64,000 bases of DNA from an uncultured Solirubrobacterales bacterium (GCA_963818815.1 CAWFTL010000004.1:90717-154716), one strand, 5' to 3'; counted from the first letter of the stretch, positions 18,776 through 29,906 are shown. Notes: generated by a model from the letters alone, not told the origin. Translations and numbers: made by a program.

Positions 18776-18910
18776 TACTGATGCCGCTCGGACCGCCCCG
18801 GCGGCACGCCTTCCTCCCGGCCGGGGTTGCACAGCCTCTTCGGTTGAAACCTGCAGAAAGCCGAACACGCAGGACACTCCGCTGGGCACGGTCTTGCACT
18901 TGTCGCCTGA

Positions 18911-19038
18911 TGCCTGCGGAGTTAGCTGTCGGGCTCGCGCTTGTCTGGCAAGCGCTTCCCACGGATCACCGTGAGACTCGCCCCAATGTGTTGGGTTCCC
19001 CGCTCCCCGGGGCGGCAGTCCGGGGATTCGGCGGGCAG
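18911..19038 (-). ncRNA. c-di-AMP (ydaO/yuaA) riboswitch
   Basis: The minus strand reads GCCGAATCC...GGAGCGGGGAACC...TTGGGGCGAGTC...GAGCCCGACAGCTAACTCCGCAGGC, matching the conserved ydaO segments. It lies upstream of a cell-wall hydrolase-like gene. Confidence 0.92.
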
Positions 19039-19129
19039 GAACGTACCAGAATGATCGGACGCGCGCATGCGCGCGTCCGCCGGGGCGTGCATGCACGCCC
19101 CGGGGACCGGCCGCATGCGGCCGGTCCTA

Positions 19130-19574: not shown

Positions 19575-20999
19575 CTACAGGGACTGGACCTCGGCGGTGA
19601 TCTCGCTCACCGACTGCTTGGCGTCGCCGAACAGCAGGGCGGTCTTCTCGTCGTAGAAGAGCGGGTTGTCGATGCCGGCGAACCCCGAGGCCATGGAGCG
19701 CTTGAGCACGATCACCGAGCCAGAGCGGTCGACCTCCAGGATCGGCATCCCGTAGATCGGGGAGCCGGGCTCGTTCTTGGCCGCCGGGTTGGTGACGTCG
19801 TTGGCTCCGATCACGAGCGTCACGTCGGTGCGGGAGAACTCCGGGTTGATCTCGTCCATCTCCCTGAGCAGGTCGTAGGGCACGTCGGCCTCGGCCAGGA
19901 GCACGTTCATGTGCCCGGGCATCCGGCCCGCAACCGGGTGGATCGCGAACTTGACCTCGACGCCCTTGGCCTCGAGCGCGCGCTCGAGCTCGCGGACGGA
20001 GTGCTGGGCCTGGGCCACGGCCATCCCGTAGCCGGGGGCGATCACGACCTGGCGGGCGTAGGAGAGCTGGATCGCGACGTCCTGGGGGGAGGTCGAGCGC
20101 ACGGTGCCGCCGGCGTCCCCCGTCGCGCTCGGCGCGGCGACCGCGCCCCCAAAGCCGCCGGCCACGATCGCGGGCACCGAGCGGTTCATGGCCTTCGCCA
20201 TCAGGTTGGTGAGGATCGTGCCCGAAGCTCCGACGATCATGCCGGCGACGATCATCGCCGTGTTGTTGAGCGCGATCCCGGTGGCGGCCGCGGACAGGCC
20301 CGTGAACGCGTTCAGCAGCGAGATCACGACCGGCATGTCGGCGCCGCCGATCGGCAGCACGACCATGTTCCCCAGGATCGCCGCCGCGACGAGGATGCCC
20401 AGGATGAACAGCCCCTGCGAATGCGTCCCGGCGGCCAGCACGACCGCGCTCACGACCGAGATCAGCAGCAACGCCAGGTTGATGATCGACTGGCCGGGGA
20501 GCTTGATCGGCCGCCCCGGCAGGATCTCCTGGAGCTTGCCGAACGCGATGTTCGAGCCCCAGAACGAGATCGAGCCCACGATCGCCGCGAACAGCGTGGG
20601 GATCTGGGACTTCTCGACCCACACGCTGCCGCCGCTGGCGAAGTGGTGGCGGTACTCGATCCAGGCGATCACCGCGACGGCGCCGCCGCCCACGCCGTTG
20701 AACAGCGCGACCATCTGGGGCATCGCGGTCATGCGGACGTTGCGGGCCGCCGGGACCCCGACCACGGTGCCGATCACGAGGCCGAGCAGGATCAGCCAGA
20801 CGGTGCTCGACCCGCTGAGGACATGGGGCTGAAGCAGGGTCGAGATGAAGGCGATCACCATGCCGACGGCGGCGATCAGGTTTCCGCGCACCGCCGTGCG
20901 CGGGCCGGTCAGCCCGCTCATGCCGTAGATGAACAGGGCGAAGGCGATGATGTACAGCCCGTCGGTGACGTTCGAGCTGACTGCCGCGAGCGCGATCAC
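19575..20999 (-). CDS. pntB: NAD(P) transhydrogenase subunit beta
   Basis: MTAMPQMVALFNGVGG, IGGADMPVVISLLN, PGYGMAVAQAQ, HPVAGRMPGHMNVLLAEA, GANDVTNPAA. GTG at 20999. Confidence 0.97.
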   Translation of the reverse strand: MIALAAVSSNVTDGLYIIAFALFIYGMSGLTGPRTAVRGNLIAAVGMVIAFISTLLQPHVLSGSSTVWLILLGLVIGTVVGVPAARNVRMTAMPQMVALFNGVGGGAVAVIAWIEYRHHFASGGSVWVEKSQIPTLFAAIVGSISFWGSNIAFGKLQEILPGRPIKLPGQSIINLALLLISVVSAVVLAAGTHSQGLFILGILVAAAILGNMVVLPIGGADMPVVISLLNAFTGLSAAATGIALNNTAMIVAGMIVGASGTILTNLMAKAMNRSVPAIVAGGFGGAVAAPSATGDAGGTVRSTSPQDVAIQLSYARQVVIAPGYGMAVAQAQHSVRELERALEAKGVEVKFAIHPVAGRMPGHMNVLLAEADVPYDLLREMDEINPEFSRTDVTLVIGANDVTNPAAKNEPGSPIYGMPILEVDRSGSVIVLKRSMASGFAGIDNPLFYDEKTALLFGDAKQSVSEITAEVQSL

Positions 21000-21310
21000 G
21001 GTCCCGGCTCCTCGGCTTCCTCGGTCTTCGGCGGGTCCTTGCGTTTGAACATTCCCAGCATGCGGTCGGTGACCAGGAAGCCGCCGATCACGTTGATCGT
21101 CCCGAACGCGATCGCGATCACCAGCAGCGCGTGCTCGAGCACGCCATGGGCCGAGTGCATCAGCAGCAGCCCGCCGAGCAGGACGATGCCGTGGATCGCG
21201 TTGGTGCCCGACATCAGCGGCGTGTGCAGCGTGTTCGGGACCTTCGAGATCACCTCGAAGCCGACGAACGCGGCCAGGACCAGGATCGCGATCTCCGTGA
21301 TAGTGGTCAT
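20996..21310 (-). CDS. pntA: NAD(P) transhydrogenase subunit alpha part 2
   Basis: LHTPLMSGTNAIHG, NVIGGFLVTDRML.MFK. Confidence 0.95.
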   Translation of the reverse strand: MTTITEIAILVLAAFVGFEVISKVPNTLHTPLMSGTNAIHGIVLLGGLLLMHSAHGVLEHALLVIAIAFGTINVIGGFLVTDRMLGMFKRKDPPKTEEAEEPGP

Positions 21311-22437
21311 GCCGGGGCCCCCGCCGCCTGCTTGGCGCCCTCGTGCACGATCTCCCCACCGCGGGTGATGCAGGCGCCGGCGATCACCTCGTCGTCGAAG
21401 TCGAGCGAGAGCTGGCCCTCCTCGGAGATCATCAGCCCCAGCAGCGCCTCGATGTTGCGCGCGTAGAGCTGGGAGGCGTGCTCGGCCATCGTGCTCGGCA
21501 CGTTGAGCGGCGCCAGGATCTTCACGTCGTGGCGGATGACCGACTCGCCGGGCTCGGAGAGCTCGCAGTTGCCGCCCTGCTCACCGGCCAGGTCGACGAT
21601 CACCGAGCCGGGCTTCATCAGCTTGACCGCCTCCTCGGTGACGAGGATCGGCGCGCGCCGGCCCGGCACCAGGGCGGTCGTGATGACCACGTCGACCTTG
21701 CCGATGGCTTCGGCCATCAGCTCCTGCTGGCGCGCCTGCTGCTCGGGCGTGAGCTCCTTGGCGTAGCCGCCCGCGCCCTCGAGGTCCTGACCACCAATTT
21801 CGAACTCCAGGAACTTCGCTCCGAGCGACTCGACCTGCTCCTTGACGGCGGCGCGCACGTCGAAGCCCTGTACCACGGAGCCCAGCCGGCGGGCGGTGGC
21901 AATCGCCTGCAGGCCCGCCACGCCCGCTCCCAGCACGAGCACGGTGGCCGGGCGGATCGTTCCCGCGGCGGTCATCAGCATCGGGTAGAAGCGGCCGAGC
22001 TCCTGGGCGCCGATCAGCGCGGCGCGGTAGCCGGCGATGTTGGCCTGGCTCGAGAGCGCGTCCATCGACTGCGCGCGGCTGATCCGCGGCACGGCCTCGA
22101 GCGCGAAGCTGGTCGCGCCGGTCGCGGCGATGGCGCGGATCCCGTCGCCGTTGGTGAGCGGCTGCAAAAACCCGATGAGGACGGATTCCGAGCCCAGGCG
22201 GCCTACCTCGTCCTGGCCCGGCGGCGCCACCTTGACGATGAGCTCGGCCCCCCATGCGTCGTCGGTCAGCTCGGCCCCGGCCTCCTCGTACTGCTGGTCG
22301 GGGATCAGCGCGCCCGCACCCGCGCCGCGCTGCACCAGGATGCGGTGCTCGCGGCCGGTGAGCTTGCGCACGACTTCGGGGACCAGCGCCACCCGGCGCT
22401 CGCCCTCGACGGTCTCCCTGGGCACTCCGATCTGCAT
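21307..22437 (-). CDS. pntA: NAD(P) transhydrogenase subunit alpha part 1 (dI)
   Basis: IGVPRE...ERRVA, RISRAQSMDALSSQANIAGY, GAGVAGLQAI, TTALVPGRRAP. Confidence 0.96.
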   Translation of the reverse strand: MQIGVPRETVEGERRVALVPEVVRKLTGREHRILVQRGAGAGALIPDQQYEEAGAELTDDAWGAELIVKVAPPGQDEVGRLGSESVLIGFLQPLTNGDGIRAIAATGATSFALEAVPRISRAQSMDALSSQANIAGYRAALIGAQELGRFYPMLMTAAGTIRPATVLVLGAGVAGLQAIATARRLGSVVQGFDVRAAVKEQVESLGAKFLEFEIGGQDLEGAGGYAKELTPEQQARQQELMAEAIGKVDVVITTALVPGRRAPILVTEEAVKLMKPGSVIVDLAGEQGGNCELSEPGESVIRHDVKILAPLNVPSTMAEHASQLYARNIEALLGLMISEEGQLSLDFDDEVIAGACITRGGEIVHEGAKQAAGAPA

Positions 22438-22464: not shown

Positions 22465-24204
22465 TCATGTCAGGCCGACCGGCGCGAAGGCCAGCGCCGC
22501 GGCCACGCCGGCCTCGGAAGCCAGGCCGGATAGGGCGCGGGCGCTGCCCAGTGCAGAGGCAGCCCGCTTTCCGGAGCGAGCGGTCCCGCGGTGAGCGCCG
22601 CCACGGCCCGATCCGCCCCCGCTCCGCGCCCTGGATTGGCGTCGCGACGCCCCGCCCCCCGAGCGCCGCCGGGCGACCGGGGCCAGCGGCAGGGCCTTGC
22701 CGTCCAGGGCCATCTCCGCCTGGGCGGTGACCCACACCGGGGTCTGGTCGCTGGTGCGCGAGTAGCGCACGTGGCCGTCGGGGGCGATAAGCGAATTCAG
22801 GAACTGCAGCGGCGACGGCGCGCCGTGGCGATGAAGGCCGGCGGGGTCGACGCCGGCGGCGATCAGCCCCTGCACCGCCCATGCCGTGGACTGAGCATTG
22901 GACTGCCCGCCGCCCTGGGCGGAAAAGCCGCCGTCGGGGCTCTGCACGCGGCGCAGGTAGCGCACGGCGGCGGTGGCGGCCCGTCCCGCCGCGCCGCCGG
23001 CCCCGGCGAGCGCCTGCAGCGCCGCGCCCGTGTCGTCGACGTCGCTGGCCCCGCCCGCGCGCGCGAAGTTGAAGCCGCCGTCGCGGTCCTGCTGGCGGGC
23101 GATCCAGCTGATCGAGGCTCCCGGGGCTCCGCTCCCGGCCGCGCGGAGCGCGAGCACCGCGAAGGCGGTCCAGTTGACCTGCTCGGCCACCGATCCGTCA
23201 GAGCGGATGTGCTGCTCGAGCATGGCGACGAGGTCACGCCCCCCGAAGCTCCGTGCCGGCGCCCCGGCGGCGCCGGCGACGAGGATCGTGCGCTCGATCG
23301 CGCCCGGGTCGCCGAGCCCGCCGGCCCCCGCGCGTACGTAGGCCAGCAGGTTCTGGCCCCCGCGGCGGACGTCGGCCGGGTTGCGCCCGGCGGCGGCGAG
23401 CCCCAGGGCCGCCCAACCGCTGTAGAGCTGCGAGGACGGGGCGGCCGGCGCGGAGCCAAAGCCGCCGTCGCGGTTCTGGGCGGCGAGCAGGTAGCCGCTC
23501 GGCGTGCCCGCGGCACGTGCGAGTGCAGCCCCGCCTCCCACCACCGGCTGCACGGCCGCCGCCGCGACCACGAGCACGATCAGCGGGACCGCGGCTCCCG
23601 GCACCCATACCACCTGTATGCGCCTGGCGAAGCGCTGGATCGAATGCATCAGCGCCGGGCCGAATGCGAGCGCGAAGGCGACACAGCCGGCCGCGTGAAT
23701 GAAGTCAAAGCCGGTTCCCTTGCCCACGTATACGCCGAGCTGGACCAGGCTGTGGTCGCTGTAGGTGACCCAGTCTCCGACGTCCTGGAGGGCGGCGAAG
23801 GCGAAACCGGCGAGTCCGCAGATCGCCGCCAGCGACCAGCGGCCGAGCCGGCGGCCCGTGAGCACGGCCAGACCGGCGCCGAGCACTCCCGTGGCACCCC
23901 AGGCGGCCATCTGCCACGGCGTCCACGGCCCCTGCCCGAAGAAGAAGTTGGACGTCAGCCCCGCCAGCGCCCCCACCACGAAGCCCGGTGCCCCGCCGAG
24001 CGCATAGCCCGAGATGAGGACGATGTCCGTCGTCGGCTTGACGTTGGGGAGCGCGACGAAGGCGATGCGGCCCAGCGCGGCGAGCGCGGCCAGGGTGGCG
24101 ACGAGCGCGACGATGCGCGCGTCGGGACGGCTGCGCTCGTACCAGGCGAAGCCCGCCGCCAGGGCTACGGCGAGGATCGCCAGCGCGCCGAGCTGCCAGG
24201 TCAA
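22465..24204 (-). CDS. CbrT-like cobalamin ECF S-component fused to an extracellular prenyltransferase-repeat (alpha6/alpha6 barrel, transcobalamin alpha-like) domain
   Basis: TTG at 24204 overlaps the ATPase stop. The N-terminal part has GRIAF..LPNVKPTT and SNFFFGQGPWTPWQ. After an extra TM come repeats QNRDGGF, QDRDGGF, QSPDGGF, plus VDDTGAALQAL and NAQSTAWAVQGL. Confidence 0.85.
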   Translation of the reverse strand: MTWQLGALAILAVALAAGFAWYERSRPDARIVALVATLAALAALGRIAFVALPNVKPTTDIVLISGYALGGAPGFVVGALAGLTSNFFFGQGPWTPWQMAAWGATGVLGAGLAVLTGRRLGRWSLAAICGLAGFAFAALQDVGDWVTYSDHSLVQLGVYVGKGTGFDFIHAAGCVAFALAFGPALMHSIQRFARRIQVVWVPGAAVPLIVLVVAAAAVQPVVGGGAALARAAGTPSGYLLAAQNRDGGFGSAPAAPSSQLYSGWAALGLAAAGRNPADVRRGGQNLLAYVRAGAGGLGDPGAIERTILVAGAAGAPARSFGGRDLVAMLEQHIRSDGSVAEQVNWTAFAVLALRAAGSGAPGASISWIARQQDRDGGFNFARAGGASDVDDTGAALQALAGAGGAAGRAATAAVRYLRRVQSPDGGFSAQGGGQSNAQSTAWAVQGLIAAGVDPAGLHRHGAPSPLQFLNSLIAPDGHVRYSRTSDQTPVWVTAQAEMALDGKALPLAPVARRRSGGGASRRQSRARSGGGSGRGGAHRGTARSGKRAASALGSARALSGLASEAGVAAALAFAPVGLT

Positions 24205-25787
24205 GCGATCGCCTCCAGCGGCCGGGGCCGGCTCAGCAGCGCGACGCCGTCGGCCGGCGTCAGCGCCGCTCCGTTCAGGATCCGCGCCGTCTCGGTGGCG
24301 AAGTAGTCCCCCCCGGCCAGGATCTCCGCCGTGGACCCGTCGGCGATCGGGGCGCCGTCGCCGAGCAGGATGACCCGGTCGGCGAAGGCGGCCGCGAACT
24401 CGGCATCGTGGGTGGCGACGACGACCGCCGGCTCGAGCCCGCGCAGGAGCTCGGCCAACGCGTCCTTGCGGGCCCGGTCCATGCCGCGCGTGGGCTCGTC
24501 GAGGCAAACGACGGCCGGCGCTTCCTTGGCGCCCTCCGGATCGAGCACGATCGCCAGGGCCAGGCGCTGGCGCTCCCCGCCTGAGAGATCGCGGGGGTGG
24601 CGGTCTCCGAACACCACCGGGTCGAGCCCGACGGCAGCCAGCGCGGCCGGCGAGGCCTCCTCGGCCACCGACTCGTGCACGAGGTAGTCGCCGGGGTTCT
24701 GGAGCAGCAGGGCCACGCGGCCCGCGGAGGCCACTCGTCCTCGGGTGGGCGCCAGCAGCCCGGCGGCGTGACGGAGCAGGGTCGACTTCCCGGCCCCGTT
24801 TCGCCCCATGAGCGCCACCCGCTCACCGGGTGCGACCGAGAGGCGCACATCGCGCAGGATGGCCGCGCCGCCGCGGAGCTCGTGCCAAACGCCTGAGAAG
24901 CGCAGGGCGGCGGAGCGCTCCGCCGCGCGCGAGATGGCGGGAGCGGGAGCGGAGGGCAGTTCGACACCGGCATCGCGCAGCGCCGTCCTGGCCGCCCTGA
25001 CGCCGGCCACGGGAGCCAGCCCGAGGCCGCTGAGCAGCCGCGCCCCGGGCGTGCACAGCGTGGGCGCCTGGGCCGCGGCCCACTCCAGGAACTGCGACGG
25101 CGGGCCATCGCAGACGATCCGGCCCGCCGCGAGGGCGATCACGCGGTCGGCGAAGCTCAGGCAGCGCTCGAGGCGATGCTCGGCCAGCAGGAGCGCGATC
25201 TCGGCATCGTCGTGCAGGCGCCGCAATGTGGCCAGCAGCTCCTCACCGGCCACCGGATCGAGCTGGGCGGTCGGCTCGTCGAGGACGAGGAGCTGCGGAC
25301 GCGCGGCCAGGGCGGCGGCGAGCGCCACGCGCTGCAGCTCGCCCCCCGAGAGCTCGGAGGTCGGGCGCTCGAGCAGGTGGGCGACGCCGAGCGAGAGCGC
25401 AGCCTCCTCGACCGCGCGCGCGATCGCCGGCGGGCTGGCACCGTGATTCTCGAGTGCGAAAGCGATCTCGGCCCGCACCGTCGCCATCACGACCTGCGTC
25501 TCGGGGTCCTGCAGGAGCGTCCCCACCGCGGCCGAGAGCTCGCCTGGACGGTGCTCGCGCGTGTCGAGCCCGGCGACGATCGCGCGGCCGGCGAACTCGC
25601 CGCCGTGGAAGTGCGGCACGAGTCCGCTGGCCAGGGCGAGCAGGGTCGATTTGCCCGAGCCCGAGGAACCCGTCACGACCACGAGCTCCCCAGGCGAGAT
25701 CGCCAGCGAGACGTCGCGCAGCGATGGCCCGGGGGCGCCGGGGTACGTGTAGGTGACGTCCTGCAACTCGAGGACGGACCCGCTCAT
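24201..25787 (-). CDS. ECF transporter double ATPase (EcfA-A' fusion, CbrU-like)
   Basis: Two ABC cassettes: GSSGSGKST/LSGGELQR/LDEPT and GRNGAGKST/LSGGERQR/LDEPTRG. QDPETQ Q-helix. Confidence 0.93.
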   Translation of the reverse strand: MSGSVLELQDVTYTYPGAPGPSLRDVSLAISPGELVVVTGSSGSGKSTLLALASGLVPHFHGGEFAGRAIVAGLDTREHRPGELSAAVGTLLQDPETQVVMATVRAEIAFALENHGASPPAIARAVEEAALSLGVAHLLERPTSELSGGELQRVALAAALAARPQLLVLDEPTAQLDPVAGEELLATLRRLHDDAEIALLLAEHRLERCLSFADRVIALAAGRIVCDGPPSQFLEWAAAQAPTLCTPGARLLSGLGLAPVAGVRAARTALRDAGVELPSAPAPAISRAAERSAALRFSGVWHELRGGAAILRDVRLSVAPGERVALMGRNGAGKSTLLRHAAGLLAPTRGRVASAGRVALLLQNPGDYLVHESVAEEASPAALAAVGLDPVVFGDRHPRDLSGGERQRLALAIVLDPEGAKEAPAVVCLDEPTRGMDRARKDALAELLRGLEPAVVVATHDAEFAAAFADRVILLGDGAPIADGSTAEILAGGDYFATETARILNGAALTPADGVALLSRPRPLEAIA

Positions 25788-26647
25788 CGGCCGATCCCCC
25801 GGCGGTCGGCGAACGGCATCAAGGCGACGGCGATCACCGCGAGGGCGATCAGCAGCTGGCCGGTGCCGAGCGGCATGTGCAGCGAGGGGTAGGCGCTGAA
25901 CGCGACCAGCCCCGCGACGCGGCCGCCGACCGCCAGGACGAGGATCGCGGCTGCCGCGGCGGCGAAGGCGAGGTCGTGGCGCGAGCGCGGACGGCGCACG
26001 GCGGCCGGCCTGCTGGCTCCGGCATATCCACGTACTTCGAGCGCGGCGGCGACATCGAGGGCGCGGTCGAGCGCGCCGGCGGTGGTCGCGCGCATCAGGG
26101 CAAAGCGAGACGGCGAGCGGCCGGCGCGGCAGCGCTGCGCCTCCGCCAGGCGGCGCGAGTCGCGGATCAGCACGGGGACCAGCCGTGTGGCGAGCGTCGC
26201 CGTCAGCGCCGAGTGAAAGGACACGCGGCGCAGCAGGCGCAACACCTCATCGGGGTCGACGGCGGCCGAGTAGAGGGCGCCGCAGAGCACGAGGATGAGC
26301 GCGCGTAGGCCCAGCACCGCCCCGTAGACACTCGCCTCGAGCGTGATGTCGGTGTGCCCGAGCACGGGCAGATCCCCGAGGCGGAGAATCACCGTGAGCC
26401 CGTCGCGCGTCACGAGGGCGTTGATCAGGGCGATCAGCAGCGCCAGCGGCAAGGCGAGGAGGAGCGCGCGAGCGAGCACGCTCCGCAGCCCTGCGGCGAC
26501 GAAGGCACCGGCGACGGCGAGGCAGACCGCCGCCAGGACGACGGGACTGGAGAGCACCAGGGCGGCGATGGCCAGCGCCAGGCAGTAGCCGATCCCCGCC
26601 GCGGCCCGCGCCGAGTGAAGGGGGCTGGCTCGGCGACGGTAGATCAC
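25784..26647 (-). CDS. ECF transporter T component (EcfT/CbrV-like)
   Basis: TM segments, then LATRLVPVL, AQRCRA and ALEVRGY (Arg-containing coupling helices). Confidence 0.9.
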   Translation of the reverse strand: MIYRRRASPLHSARAAAGIGYCLALAIAALVLSSPVVLAAVCLAVAGAFVAAGLRSVLARALLLALPLALLIALINALVTRDGLTVILRLGDLPVLGHTDITLEASVYGAVLGLRALILVLCGALYSAAVDPDEVLRLLRRVSFHSALTATLATRLVPVLIRDSRRLAEAQRCRAGRSPSRFALMRATTAGALDRALDVAAALEVRGYAGASRPAAVRRPRSRHDLAFAAAAAAILVLAVGGRVAGLVAFSAYPSLHMPLGTGQLLIALAVIAVALMPFADRRGIGR

Positions 26648-27567
26648 GATCCCGCTCTCAGGGGGAGCGGGATGACTCCATGCCCGTCGACCGCGACCGC
26701 GAAGTGGTCACGCAGGTCGGCCTGGTTGAACGCGGCGGCCGCCCTGGCGACGCCGGTGGCGTCGGTCCCGGTGATGAGCCACGTCGGCGTCGGCGTCTGA
26801 TAGGCCGTGGCGGCGATCAGCCCCGCGCCGGGACCGAGCGTGCGCACCACGTGCCCAGCCGGGTCGAGCAGCTGAAGTGCGGCGCCGGCGGACGCGAACT
26901 TGGCATAGACCCCGCTGGCCGACGGCCCGACCGCGATCAAACCGGCGATCAGCTGCGGGCGCAGCTCTTGCCAGGTGCCGACGTCGACGGTCAGCGTGTC
27001 GCTCCCGGAGCCCGTGCCCAGCAACTGGCTGGCCGCCGGCACGCCGACCGCATGGAGGGCCGCCGCGGCGCGCCGGCAGGCGAGGCCGGCATCAGGCCCG
27101 CAGGCGAGCGAGGTGGGAAAGCGCTTGCCGCCGGTGCCGTGGACGAAGGGCTCGGGGAACGCTCCGACGACGGCCGGCACGGAGTTGGTGGCGGTCCAGT
27201 CGTGCAGGTCCCACCAGATGTGGTCTCCGCGGTGCACAGCGGTCGTGGCCGCCCCCTGGGGCGCCTCCACGCCGTTGACGTAGTAGAACCAGTCGAGCCG
27301 GCTGCCCGAGCCCCCGAGGCCGTTGATCGACTGCACGAAACCGCCCCCGTAGCGGGTGTTCACGCGGAAGGACCGCTCGAGCATCCGCATCACAGTCTCG
27401 GAGCCCGGCACCTTCGACCGGCTGACCTGCGCGATCCGCTTCTGCCCAAACGAGCGCGTGACGGTCACGCTCACGTTCGAGGTGCCCTGGCCCGGACCCA
27501 GCCCGCACCCGGCGAGGATCGCGGCCGCGGTGGCCACGGTCCCCGCCAGTAGGGCCCGGCTGCGCAT
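26644..27567 (-). CDS. DUF4430 (transcobalamin beta-domain-like) lipoprotein, CbrS-like
   Basis: ATG 27567, lipobox LAGC, GGFVQSING...DWFYYVNG...GA....HRGDHIWWD, plus an additional C-terminal domain. Confidence 0.85.
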   Translation of the reverse strand: MRSRALLAGTVATAAAILAGCGLGPGQGTSNVSVTVTRSFGQKRIAQVSRSKVPGSETVMRMLERSFRVNTRYGGGFVQSINGLGGSGSRLDWFYYVNGVEAPQGAATTAVHRGDHIWWDLHDWTATNSVPAVVGAFPEPFVHGTGGKRFPTSLACGPDAGLACRRAAAALHAVGVPAASQLLGTGSGSDTLTVDVGTWQELRPQLIAGLIAVGPSASGVYAKFASAGAALQLLDPAGHVVRTLGPGAGLIAATAYQTPTPTWLITGTDATGVARAAAAFNQADLRDHFAVAVDGHGVIPLPLRAGS

Positions 27568-27569
27568 CG

Positions 27570-28259
27570 TCAGGACGAGACGCGCACGCGCACCGTCGCC
27601 GCCCGGATGTAGCCGTTCGCGCGCGCATGCAGGATCAGCGAGCCTTGATGACCGGCGGTGAACGTCGCGACGCCCTTGCCGTTCGTGTGCGAGCCCTGGG
27701 TGCCGCCGGCGACGTTCGCGTACACCGTCGCCCCGGACACGGGCTTGGCTTTGCCCGCGGCGGAGTAGGCCGCGACCTTGACCTGGAACGGCTTGCCCGC
27801 GGTGGCGGCCGAGGGCGCGCTCAGCACAAGTGGGAACTGCTTGCCGTTCGTGACCGCGAACAGAAGCTGCTCGCCCGCGTGCAGCTTCATGTCGCACACG
27901 CCCGCGCTCGCCGAGCGGTTGTTCACGAACACCGTCCAGTAGTCGTTCCCGCTCGCCTTCTCACCCAGGATCGAGGTGATGAAGATGCCGGGCACGCTGG
28001 CGTACCACTTGCCCGTCCAGCGATGGTGGGTCGCCGCGTCGAGCGCGCCGGCGGCGCTCGATCCGGAGCATTTGCCACGAGGCGCACCGCCCTTCGTGAC
28101 CCAGCCCTTGGCGCCGGCCGTCTTGGTCGGGGCCAGCAGCGTGCGACTGAGCCCTTCCACGCGCACGGTGACCTGGCTTCGGTTGCCGGCGCTGGCCGCC
28201 GGTACCGCAACCACACCGGCGAGCACTCCGAGAAGCGCGATGGAGATTCTTCGATTCAA
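27570..28259 (-). CDS. Secreted DUF4430-like protein with C-terminal Ig-like domain
   Basis: Likely TTG start 28259 after AAAGGGG. Signal peptide ending ASA, GIFITSILGEKASGNDYWTVFVNN...GVCDMKLHAGEQLLF, and a beta-rich C-terminus. Confidence 0.8.
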   Translation of the reverse strand: MNRRISIALLGVLAGVVAVPAASAGNRSQVTVRVEGLSRTLLAPTKTAGAKGWVTKGGAPRGKCSGSSAAGALDAATHHRWTGKWYASVPGIFITSILGEKASGNDYWTVFVNNRSASAGVCDMKLHAGEQLLFAVTNGKQFPLVLSAPSAATAGKPFQVKVAAYSAAGKAKPVSGATVYANVAGGTQGSHTNGKGVATFTAGHQGSLILHARANGYIRAATVRVRVSS

Positions 28260-28304
28260 CAGGGCCACCCCTTTCCGCGAGGGCGTATCGGCGTTGCGGT
28301 CGCA

Positions 28305-28447
28305 GCCTGGTCTCCTGGCTGACGGGCCTACCGGCCGCGCCTTCCCGGCGAGGTTTCCTCACCAGTGGCACGTTGCGGCCGGCGTCCCCGATCACAGTGG
28401 CGGGTCCGCTCCGGAATCTCACCGGCTTCCCATCGCCTGCGACCTTG
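28305..28447 (-). ncRNA. Cobalamin riboswitch
   Basis: The minus strand reads AAGGTC...ATGGGAAGCCGGTGAGATTCCGG...GCCACTGT...GCCACTGG...GGGAAGG...AGCCAGGAGACC (B12 box). TACGAT -10 at 28461-28456. Confidence 0.95.
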
Positions 28448-28492: not shown

Positions 28493-29050
28493 ATGACCGT
28501 GAACCTGACCCGCATCTACACCCGGCTGGGTGACGGCGGGGAAACCCACCTGGGGGACATGAGCCGCGTCCCCAAGACCCACCCGCGGATCGAGGCCTAC
28601 GGGACGGTGGACGAGCTGAACGCCCACCTCGGGGTCGCGCTGACCTTGCCGGACCTCTCGGGCGAATTCGCGGCGTGGCTGCGACGGATCCAGAACGACC
28701 TCTTCGACGTCGGGGCCGACATTGCCGCGCCTGAGGACCCCGGGCGCGACCGCCTCCGGGTCGTGCCCGAGCAGACCTCATGGCTCGAGGCGCGCTGCGA
28801 TGAGGTCAACGAGAAGCTCGAGCCGCTGAAGTCGTTCGTGCTGCCCGGTGGGACGCCGGTCGCGGCGCATCTGCACGTGTGCCGCACGGTCTGCCGGCGC
28901 GCCGAGCGGCTGGCCATCGCGTGCGGCGAGGCGTGCAGCCCGGAGGTGGTTCGCTACCTCAACCGCCTCTCCGACCTGCTGTTCATCCTTGCCCGCGGGG
29001 CCAACGGCGGCGAGGAGCCGCTGTGGGAGCCCGGCCGCTACCGGTCCTGA
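28493..29050 (+). CDS. pduO: PduO-type cob(I)alamin adenosyltransferase
   Basis: RIYTRLGDGGETHL, RIEAYGTVDELN, IQNDLFDVGA, FVLPGG, RTVCRRAER, YLNRLSDLLF. Confidence 0.95.
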   Translation: MTVNLTRIYTRLGDGGETHLGDMSRVPKTHPRIEAYGTVDELNAHLGVALTLPDLSGEFAAWLRRIQNDLFDVGADIAAPEDPGRDRLRVVPEQTSWLEARCDEVNEKLEPLKSFVLPGGTPVAAHLHVCRTVCRRAERLAIACGEACSPEVVRYLNRLSDLLFILARGANGGEEPLWEPGRYRS

Positions 29051-29051
29051 G

Positions 29052-29906
29052 CTAGCGCCGCAGGGCGAGCATCACGCCGGTGGCGAGCGCCAGCCCCAGG
29101 GCGCCGATGGCCAACGCGCCGACCACGAACGGCTCGTGCAGCCGCGCGTAGGCCACGACCTCGCGCGGCCGGGCCAGGGCGACGAGCCCGGCGAGCGCGA
29201 GCGCGCCCAGCAGCACCGCCGAGGGCGGCCCGAGCGCCGCGCGCACCGACAGCCGCTGCGGCGGACCGCTGGGTCCGGGAAGGCGGAGCCGGGCGTCGGC
29301 GGTGAGCACGGCGGCGACGGCGAGCAGGGTCCAGATCGCGGCGACCAGGAAGCCGCCGAGAACGTCGCTGGGATAGTGCCACTCGAGGGTCAGGAACGAA
29401 TAGCTAACCGCGACCGCGAACGCGGCTCCCAGCGCGGCGACGAACGGCCGGGCGCGGGCCGGGACCGCGAGCACGAGGCAGAGGGCCAGCGACATCGCCG
29501 CCGTCGCATGCCCGCTCGGCCACGAGGCCGGCGCCGGCGGCAGCGTTCCCGCCAGCAGGTTCGCGGGCCGGGGCTCGGCCAGCAGCGGCTTGAGCAGCTG
29601 CGTCGTCACGTTGGCGCCGAGCAGGATCGTCACCACCGCCAGCGTGACCCACAGCCGGCGCCGGGCCAGCGCGATCAGGACAGGAGCCGCGCAGAAGTAC
29701 ACGTACGGCTTGGGATCGCACAGCTTGGCCACGAACAGGGCCAGCGAGCTCACTCGGGGGCGCCCCTTGAGGCCGGTGAAGCCGCGCAGGACCGACTCGT
29801 CGGCGTGCTTGACGATCCCGATGTGAAACGCGGCGTACCACGTGGCGACGAGCAGCACGGTCAGCGCCACCGCGCCGAGCATGGCTCTCCGGGCGCGTAG
29901 GGGCAT
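29052..29906 (-). CDS. PAP2-family membrane phosphatase
   Basis: LLKPLLAEPRP, SWPSGHA, WHYPSDVLGG. Confidence 0.9.
   Translation of the reverse strand: MPLRARRAMLGAVALTVLLVATWYAAFHIGIVKHADESVLRGFTGLKGRPRVSSLALFVAKLCDPKPYVYFCAAPVLIALARRRLWVTLAVVTILLGANVTTQLLKPLLAEPRPANLLAGTLPPAPASWPSGHATAAMSLALCLVLAVPARARPFVAALGAAFAVAVSYSFLTLEWHYPSDVLGGFLVAAIWTLLAVAAVLTADARLRLPGPSGPPQRLSVRAALGPPSAVLLGALALAGLVALARPREVVAYARLHEPFVVGALAIGALGLALATGVMLALRR

Follow-up and report, generated by a model that had tools for sequence, protein, structure and literature searches.

The 64,000-nucleotide stretch analysed here (referred to as the window; GCA_963818815.1, CAWFTL010000004.1:90717-154716), from an uncultured Solirubrobacterales bacterium, contains within positions 22465-28447 a five-gene operon (g1 to g5) that combines an energy-coupling factor (ECF) transporter with surface proteins related to the animal vitamin B12 carrier transcobalamin (TC). 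The operon is highly likely to import B12 or corrinoids, and it is very likely the cell's B12 uptake route. On balance, it likely represents a high-affinity B12 uptake system in which a group I ECF transporter with a CbrT-homologous S-component is served by three extracytoplasmic modules built from the two folds of transcobalamin (i.e., beta domains in g1 and g2, and an alpha/alpha toroid in g5).

The operon is headed by a cobalamin riboswitch aptamer (28308-28432, (-) strand) that matches RF00174 with 83.9 bits (gathering score 31.5; E=3.3e-19). Its score above the Rfam gathering threshold and its position in the 5' leader, where the 3' end lies ~40 nt upstream of the g1 start, together identify it as a cobalamin riboswitch, which would turn the operon down when B12 is plentiful. 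All five genes are encoded on the (-) strand. The product of g1 (27570-28268) is a secreted protein of 232 aa with a Sec signal peptide (AASA before the cleavage site, G after it), a DUF4430 domain and a C-terminal Ig-like domain; an alternative TTG at 28259, which is better spaced from the Shine-Dalgarno sequence GGAAAGGGG, may be its true start. The second gene, g2 (26644-27567), encodes a 307 aa lipoprotein (lipobox LAGC) with DUF4430 at residues ~28-125 and an alpha/beta C-terminal domain at ~130-307. It is followed by g3 (25784-26647), which specifies the transmembrane (TM) coupling subunit EcfT of the CbiQ family (PF02361, E=2.7e-15; TIGR02454, 7e-9), and by g4 (24201-25787), a fused EcfA-EcfA' ATPase with two ABC_tran domains (E=4.8e-45) that matches TIGR04521 and TIGR04520 at E ~1e-81. 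The last gene, g5 (22465-24204; 579 aa), starts with a TTG within a TTGA overlap with g4. Its N-terminal part (23554-24204) comprises an extra TM helix, a six-helix S-component homologous to CbrT (residues 30-195) and a seventh, linking TM helix (202-217); these are followed by the predicted extracytoplasmic alpha/alpha toroid (22675-23511; residues ~232-510), in which S-D-V-D-D-T and N-A-Q-S-T motifs are conserved, and by a tail (22465-22674; residues 511-579) consisting of an Arg/Gly/Ser-rich linker and a hydrophobic helix that ends in ALAFAPVGLT before the stop codon. Overlaps of 4 nt occur at the g2/g3, g3/g4 and g4/g5 junctions, and the gap between g1 and g2 is 2 nt. With EcfT, two EcfA-type ATPase domains and an S-component encoded together, g3, g4 and g5 form a dedicated (group I) ECF transporter, and the 4-nt overlaps couple their translation. 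The first-pass annotation of this DNA had described a tightly coupled five-gene operon behind a cobalamin riboswitch, with four of the five genes joined by 4-nt overlaps, and the riboswitch score, gene coordinates, domain matches and three overlapping junctions confirm this description; the motif strings that it quoted (VDDTGAALQAL, NAQSTAWAVQGL, FITSILG...YWTVFVN and FVQSING...WFYYVNG) are all present in the translations. Folding of the leader in search of a helix sequestering the Shine-Dalgarno sequence gave z=-0.9, and promoter and terminator scans of the operon region found nothing, as is usual for such high-GC DNA.

A link to transcobalamin is provided by g1 and g2, which carry true transcobalamin-beta homologous domains according to Pfam, a family hidden Markov model (HMM) and Foldseek searches with the g2 model. 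Residues 70-140 of g1 match PF14478 (DUF4430) with E=4.6e-8 and 33.8 bits, and g2 matches the same family with E=3.7e-14 and 53.4 bits (cut-off 23.8); further along, residues 147-229 of g1 are Ig-like, with weak Pfam matches to CarboxypepD_reg and Invasin_D3. The best PDB matches of the AlphaFold2 model of g2 (predicted local distance difference test (pLDDT) 88.5, predicted template-modelling score (pTM) 0.85) are bovine TC (2bb6_A, E=3.9e-4), 2v3n and the bacterial DUF4430 protein 3u7z. The model also matches the beta domain of human TC (5no0, target-normalised TM-score 0.68), intrinsic factor (IF; 3kq4 and 2pmv) and haptocorrin (HC; 4kki), and its superpositions on the TC/IF/HC beta domains have a root-mean-square deviation (rmsd) of 2.3-3.7 A over ~104 columns. 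An HMM built from 136 DUF4430 domains of the operon family was searched against 120 transcobalamin sequences and a shuffled control; it matches mammalian TC at residues ~355-430 with E=1e-6 to 1e-4, compared with a best shuffled value of 2.4. The PF14478 matches above threshold and the superposable beta-grasp fold place these domains in the TC-family beta (SLBB/DUF4430) group, so that the earlier reading of both DUF4430-like proteins as TC-type beta domains is borne out by the g2 Foldseek matches and the beta HMM. From their signals, g1 is predicted to be exported and g2 to be lipid-anchored, and the lipobox cysteine of g2 shows no variation across 45 orthologues. TC-beta binds cobalamin (Cbl) by itself (PMC5599065), and g1 and g2 quite probably bind corrinoid. 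The C-terminal half of g2 (26644-27180, residues ~130-307) is a separate alpha/beta domain with pLDDT >90 that is kept in all orthologues and contains two invariant cysteines (C156 and C164); its fold matches are weak (BcsB and the N-terminal domains of GH67/GH115).

The transporter identity of g5 is indicated by the alignment of residues 30-195 with residues 10-175 of the ECF-CbrT S-component (6fnp_A; phmmer against PDB sequences, E=2e-12), which covers the six-helix core and identifies it as a CbrT-type S-component. Together with the RF00174 match, this supports the initial proposal of a riboswitch-controlled corrinoid ECF importer. An AlphaFold2 model built from 45 homologues arranges g5 as an extra N-terminal helix, the S-component helices, the TM helix at 202-217, the toroid, an Arg/Gly-rich disordered linker and a terminal helix at 549-573; pLDDT exceeds 90 in the toroid (residues ~232-510) and is low at residues 521-560. 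The C-terminal domain had been expected to form an alpha/alpha barrel, and it does model as an alpha/alpha toroid, with Foldseek matches to toroid folds. In Pfam the toroid belongs to Prenyltrans / SQHop_cyclase, and in NCBIfam it matches the 'SCO2321 family membrane protein' (SCO2321_fam) at 1.3e-24. Several features suggest that the toroid is extracytoplasmic and faces outward: judging from other S-components, the C-terminus of the S-domain (RFARR) would be cytoplasmic, so the extra helix would bring the chain outside; unfused toroid homologues start with a signal peptide or a single N-terminal anchor; and in many toroid-family members a linker leads to an unambiguous TM segment with a basic tail at the C-terminal end. 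The linker of the g5 tail varies and its 'LAPVGL' end is conserved in the family alignment, and the terminal helix is a probable C-terminal membrane anchor. This helix is only weakly hydrophobic in g5; its counterpart in other family members is an evident TM segment with a basic tail, and an Arg-rich stretch outside the membrane would be unusual.

The gene content of the host genome (3.15 Mb) is consistent with a need for imported B12. No genes for CbiC (corrin ring synthesis), CobS (nucleotide-loop assembly) or MetE were found in the genome, and since the assembly is 95% complete, these absences are strong but not absolute evidence. Genes for MetH and for two enzymes of the methylmalonyl-CoA-mutase type are present, so that the organism, lacking those three genes, appears to need complete cobalamin from outside. 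Across the whole genome there is only one cobalamin riboswitch, which is that of the operon, making this the genome's sole B12-regulated locus. Divergent from the operon lies a gene for a PduO-type ATP:cob(I)alamin adenosyltransferase (28493-29050, (+); PF01923, E=1.9e-63), a position kept in nearly all related loci. It is the combination of the gene absences, MetH and the mutases, the single riboswitch and the divergent PduO that points to the operon as the cell's B12 uptake route.

Surveys of related genomes demonstrate that the gene set and riboswitch are conserved across Thermoleophilia and other Actinomycetota, with the S-component and toroid either fused or adjacent. Relatives of g5 occur in >590 species-representative genomes; almost all of the best 80 are Solirubrobacterales, and ~70 of these 80 have the full layout (divergent pduO, riboswitch, g1, g2, EcfT, EcfAA' and S-toroid). 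Because the same operon and the same riboswitch recur in ~70 species-level genomes, the arrangement is no chance juxtaposition. Among 82 related loci, the riboswitch lies upstream of the operon in 69 (nhmmer), and S-component, toroid and DUF4430 occur together in 70. The toroid family as a whole forms 4281 representative clusters at 50% identity, and 58 of the best 150 representatives carry an S-domain, many of those being fragments. In a sample of the class, 88 of 151 genomes contain a g5 match, including 24 of the 25 Solirubrobacterales genomes, mostly as one full-length S-toroid alignment, whereas in the other orders the S-component and toroid match separately and are often directly adjacent. 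The synteny survey across Thermoleophilia that had been called for thus finds a recurring system, fused in one order and separate in the others. In four of the five unfused loci examined (L087-L090) the gene order is DUF4430, DUF4430, EcfT, EcfAA', S and toroid, and in the fifth (L091) the toroid is upstream and divergent; four of the five have a cobalamin riboswitch. A phylum-wide sample yielded matches in 46 of 201 genomes, with alignments spanning both S-component and toroid solely in Solirubrobacterales; one further genome is possibly fused, with S and toroid within a single 805-aa open frame. In the genomes sampled, the S-toroid fusion is therefore nearly confined to Solirubrobacterales and near-universal there, and comparison of the sequences suggests that it is a lineage-level fusion of two neighbouring genes inside a much broader system. 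Other fusions join the toroid to the beta domain instead. One family representative (P0129) combines a signal peptide, DUF4430, an Ig-like domain and a toroid, i.e., a g1-type protein fused to a g5-type toroid. A locus from an uncultured bacterium (L081, 446-4474, (+)) contains a 1343-aa frame with DUF4430, a toroid and choline-binding wall-anchor repeats, placed directly behind a cobalamin riboswitch (112 bits) and upstream of EcfT, EcfA and a CbrT-like S-component; judged by its domains, this protein has a wall-anchored, single-chain, transcobalamin-like architecture. These natural fusions of beta domain and toroid support cooperation between the two. In six metagenome-assembled relatives (L063, L066, L069, L073, L078 and L086), the operon genes are split into two or three frames; the probable cause is frameshift errors in the assemblies, not true pseudogene formation.

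A route for B12 can be proposed from these components. The beta-domain proteins g1 and g2 would catch free corrinoid at the wall or membrane surface, and a loaded beta domain would dock onto the toroid, which would sit directly above the CbrT pocket. Docking would close a transcobalamin-like alpha/beta sandwich, or at least form a receptor-carrier complex, after which the S-component would receive the corrinoid and carry it into the cell by toppling, powered by ATP, against EcfT/EcfAA'. Once inside, the corrinoid would be adenosylated by the product of the divergent PduO gene. The individual parts of this proposal merit different degrees of belief. That the toroid acts as the second half of the clamp, or as the docking site for the loaded beta protein, is a possibility that falls just short of being probable. 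Assembly of alpha and beta in trans around B12 is plausible given the natural beta-toroid fusions and the published behaviour of human TC-alpha and TC-beta, which, when expressed apart, assemble only in the presence of Cbl (PMC5599065). More tentative is the notion that in Solirubrobacterales the alpha half of the clamp has been built into the transporter as a fixed receptor, with g1 and g2 as mobile beta carriers forming a wall-to-membrane relay and the clamp closing, only when loaded, over the CbrT pocket. If true, this would make the system a substrate-binding-protein-dependent ECF transporter and a living model for the bacterial forerunner of the animal carrier.

Several observations weigh against this overall reading of the operon, in addition to the incompleteness of the host genome already mentioned, and most of them concern the ancestry of the toroid. 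With the g5 model, Foldseek matches class II terpene cyclases and prenyltransferase beta subunits at probability 1.0, as well as small cyclases resembling squalene-hopene cyclase (SHC) and MstE, and TC, IF and HC are not among the 50 matches listed. The comparison with TC/IF/HC structures that the first-pass annotation had suggested therefore came out positive for g2, whose top matches are TC/IF/HC beta domains, and negative for g5. When the entire g5 is used, two-domain cyclases align at an rmsd of ~20 A over >560 columns, with the TM domain spuriously paired with the second cyclase domain; the good superpositions are those of single toroids, with target-normalised TM-scores of 0.55-0.59. A toroid profile made from 60 diverse family members and searched against all PDB sequences matches drimenyl-diphosphate synthase (4e-40), SHC (2e-37), lanosterol synthase, the beta subunit of farnesyltransferase (FTase; 1e-8) and the thioester-containing domain (TED) of complement, with no TC, IF or HC up to E=10. 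PF01122 (Cobalamin_bind) does not match g5, and just two proteins of the 60 in the family set are matched, at E ~0.1. In an unfiltered hmmsearch of the toroid HMM against the 120 TC sequences, the best value was 0.076, which is no better than the 0.25 of the shuffled set, and hhalign of the toroid alignment against 30 transcobalamins was not significant (probability 1.2%, P=0.045), although this last negative is weak because hhalign with such shallow alignments also missed the genuine beta relationship. With no significant TC signal in Pfam, the PDB profile search, Foldseek, hhalign or the shuffled-control hmmsearch, a specific kinship of the toroid with TC-alpha is not supported, and the two share only the general alpha/alpha-toroid fold class. 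Residues 387-392 of g5 (S-D-V-D-D-T) align exactly with the SDVDDT of drimenyl-diphosphate synthase, which contains the DxDD acid motif; only four alignment columns are invariant in the 60 diverse toroid-family members, among them that of the middle Asp. The alpha-like motifs previously offered as signs of IF/TC kinship are not statistically supported as such, and VDDTGAAL falls on the DxDD of class II cyclases. The conserved DVDD, being a class II terpene-cyclase motif, allows for a different toroid ligand or for an activity. The toroid has the DxDD motif of a class II terpene cyclase without the rest of the definition, as it is a single toroid of ~280 residues in a B12-uptake operon rather than part of a two-domain protein in an isoprenoid context. 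Some resemblance to TC nevertheless exists at the level of motifs: the best local hhalign pairing, QSPDGGF...SNAQSTAWAVQGL with TC QTPEGHFGNVYSTPLALQLL, coincides with the second motif singled out earlier, and DVDDTGAAL, set against TC SVDTAAMAGL (whose D194 is invariant in the TC alignment), is co-linear with it at a spacing of 46 versus 48 residues. In TC, this SVDT motif presumably contacts B12. Without statistical support, the co-linearity is suggestive of a very remote common ancestry of the repeat units. The literature search also found no biochemical test of B12 binding or transport by bacterial DUF4430/toroid proteins of this type, and the only experimental paper on a similar operon, from Lactobacillus sakei, argued for heme rather than B12.

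The absence of a detectable TC-alpha sequence signal in the toroid is in line with an alternative in which the beta proteins alone bind corrinoid and pass B12 straight to the CbrT domain, with the toroid serving as a scaffold, spacer or envelope-binding module (e.g., as a docking platform for the carrier proteins, or as an attachment to a wall or lipid component that keeps the transporter in position). The ability of TC-beta to bind Cbl by itself (PMC5599065) makes such a route workable, the nearest relatives of the toroid bind isoprenoids or are thioester/TED domains, and the toroid is tethered near the membrane at both ends. It is harder to reconcile with the co-occurrence of toroid and DUF4430 in the great majority of loci, with the repeated fusion of the toroid to DUF4430 or to the S-component, and with the fact that half of the B12 pocket of TC is made by the same fold (PMC5599065, PMC1796856), and this explanation is considered unlikely, if the most serious of the alternatives. 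The DxDD motif raises a further explanation in which the toroid is an enzyme that uses the acid motif to remodel the upper or lower ligand of the corrinoid or to act on an envelope isoprenoid lipid. SDVDDT aligns on the catalytic DxDD of both drimenyl-diphosphate synthase and SHC, the middle Asp is invariant as described, and uptake-linked chemistry has a precedent in BtuM, which decyanates B12 (PMC6072759). Class II cyclases, however, need an active site between two toroids, where g5 has one outside the cell; the operon lacks isoprenoid genes; and TC has an apparently similar Asp-Thr motif (SVDT) without catalysis, so that an enzymatic toroid is very improbable. Transport of a different tetrapyrrole is less credible still: heme has been proposed as the substrate of Lsa1836-1840 of L. 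sakei, where a study tied an ECF transporter and a split alpha/beta operon to heme uptake (bioRxiv 10.1101/864751), but here a cobalamin riboswitch heads the operon and nearly all of its relatives, the genome is B12-auxotrophic yet B12-dependent, the PduO adenosyltransferase gene is adjacent and the S-component is homologous to CbrT. Heme as the substrate is rejected on the riboswitch, auxotrophy and PduO context.

Comparison with described systems clarifies which parts of the B12-clamp proposal have precedents. Lactobacillus delbrueckii imports B12 through the characterised transporter ECF-CbrT (6FNP; Santos et al. 2018, PMC5997447), which the operon resembles in its homologous S-component (E=2e-12 over ~165 residues), in the EcfT and EcfA/A' module and in the predicted B12 class of substrate. 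The operon differs in having a dedicated ECF module of its own (group I layout) with EcfA-A' fused, in that the S-component is preceded by an additional TM helix and connected by a seventh one to an external toroid, and in that two DUF4430 surface proteins are co-encoded. In the text of Santos et al. 2018 (PMC5997447), transcobalamin occurs only in the reference list, and the words 'operon', 'fusion' and 'lipoprotein' are absent. A transcobalamin-like SLBB clade was defined by Burroughs, Balaji, Iyer and Aravind in 2007 (PMC1796856), whose paper describes SLBB-alpha/alpha toroid fusions (reported in Bacillus and Desulfotomaculum), paralogue pairs in CbiO/CbiQ operons and hosts without B12 synthesis, and predicts B12 scavenging as well as a bacterial origin of animal transcobalamin. 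The present operon shares with those systems secreted or surface SLBB proteins (often two paralogues), a toroid, CbiQ/CbiO-type genes and a host without B12 synthesis; the 2007 systems are SLBB-toroid fusions or neighbourhoods, mainly from Firmicutes and archaea, and in the passages of the paper that were examined an S-component-toroid fusion, CbrT identity and riboswitch control were not found. The L. sakei preprint of 2019 describes a beta-like Lsa1839 and an alpha-like Lsa1840 as separate secreted proteins, homology-modelled as an in-trans heterodimer that was proposed to hand over heme to an ECF S-component (bioRxiv 10.1101/864751). As in Lsa1836-1840, EcfS, EcfT and EcfAA' are encoded together with a toroid and a beta domain that belong to different polypeptides. 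The alpha protein of L. sakei is free and was assigned to heme, whereas here it is tethered to the transporter and the riboswitch and auxotrophy point to B12.

Relative to animal TC, IF and haptocorrin, the operon has a beta domain that is homologous in sequence and fold, and an alpha/alpha toroid is present as a partner. TC clamps B12 between alpha and beta, and these domains, when separated, come together on Cbl (PMC5599065). In TC, both domains belong to one soluble chain in which alpha precedes beta and which enters cells by receptor-mediated endocytosis, whereas the parts found here are split (alpha on g5, beta on g1 and g2), tethered to the membrane or to lipid, and feed an ABC-type importer. 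The single-chain combination of alpha and beta that characterises TC is thus absent from this operon and is seen among its relatives in P0129 and L081. In sequence, the g5 toroid also has more in common with terpene cyclases and prenyltransferases than with PF01122. With class II terpene cyclases and prenyltransferase beta subunits (e.g., 7XQ4, SHC 1GSZ and FTase beta), its closest relatives in sequence and fold, it shares QxxDGG repeats and DxDD(T); unlike the class II cyclases, it is a lone toroid, predicted to lie outside the cytoplasm and attached to a vitamin transporter within a B12 regulon, with no second domain and no isoprenoid context. No description of an S-component-toroid fusion was found in the literature searched, which included a survey of S-component folds (PMC11109136). 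The initial presentation of the architecture as an uncharacterised novelty was over-rated, since scavenging was already predicted in 2007 (PMC1796856) and a split pair was modelled in L. sakei (bioRxiv 10.1101/864751). The general idea has been known since 2007, and the distinguishing feature of this operon is that its toroid is covalently tethered to a CbrT-type S-component.

In most descriptions, ECF transporters operate without extracytoplasmic (soluble) binding proteins, and few B12 uptake routes are known to have been characterised in Gram-positive and actinobacterial lineages. In this widespread operon family, a CbrT-type importer is supplemented with transcobalamin-like capture proteins. 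Because the Solirubrobacterales fusion fixes a 1:1 ratio of S-component to toroid, it is a natural construct for cryo-EM and binding work, which could show whether the bacterial toroid and SLBB clamp B12 as transcobalamin does. Such work could also test the 2007 proposal that the animal carrier originated in systems of this kind (PMC1796856). In addition, these Actinomycetota, which are abundant in soil, are identified by the system as obligate scavengers of B12, a point of relevance to the cross-feeding of vitamins in soil communities.

Genes flanking the operon show some conservation of their own. A gene for a PAP2-family phosphatase (29052-29906, (-)) is convergent with the PduO gene, an adjacency repeated in one relative (L006), and one toroid-family representative (P0150, 816 aa) is an S-component-toroid protein that carries a PAP2 domain at its C-terminal end. 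A functional connection is hinted at; the phosphatase might, for instance, act on a corrinoid phosphate or dephosphorylate a lipid carrier. On the other side, pntA and pntB (NAD(P) transhydrogenase; 19575-22437, (-)) begin 27 nt past the operon end, and they hold this place also in the two relatives whose downstream genes were inspected (L005 and L006). As the scan found no terminator-like site between g5 and pntA, the operon may be read through into pntA. Further downstream, the window contains a c-di-AMP (ydaO-type) riboswitch at 18895-19043 (-), with 63.2 bits.

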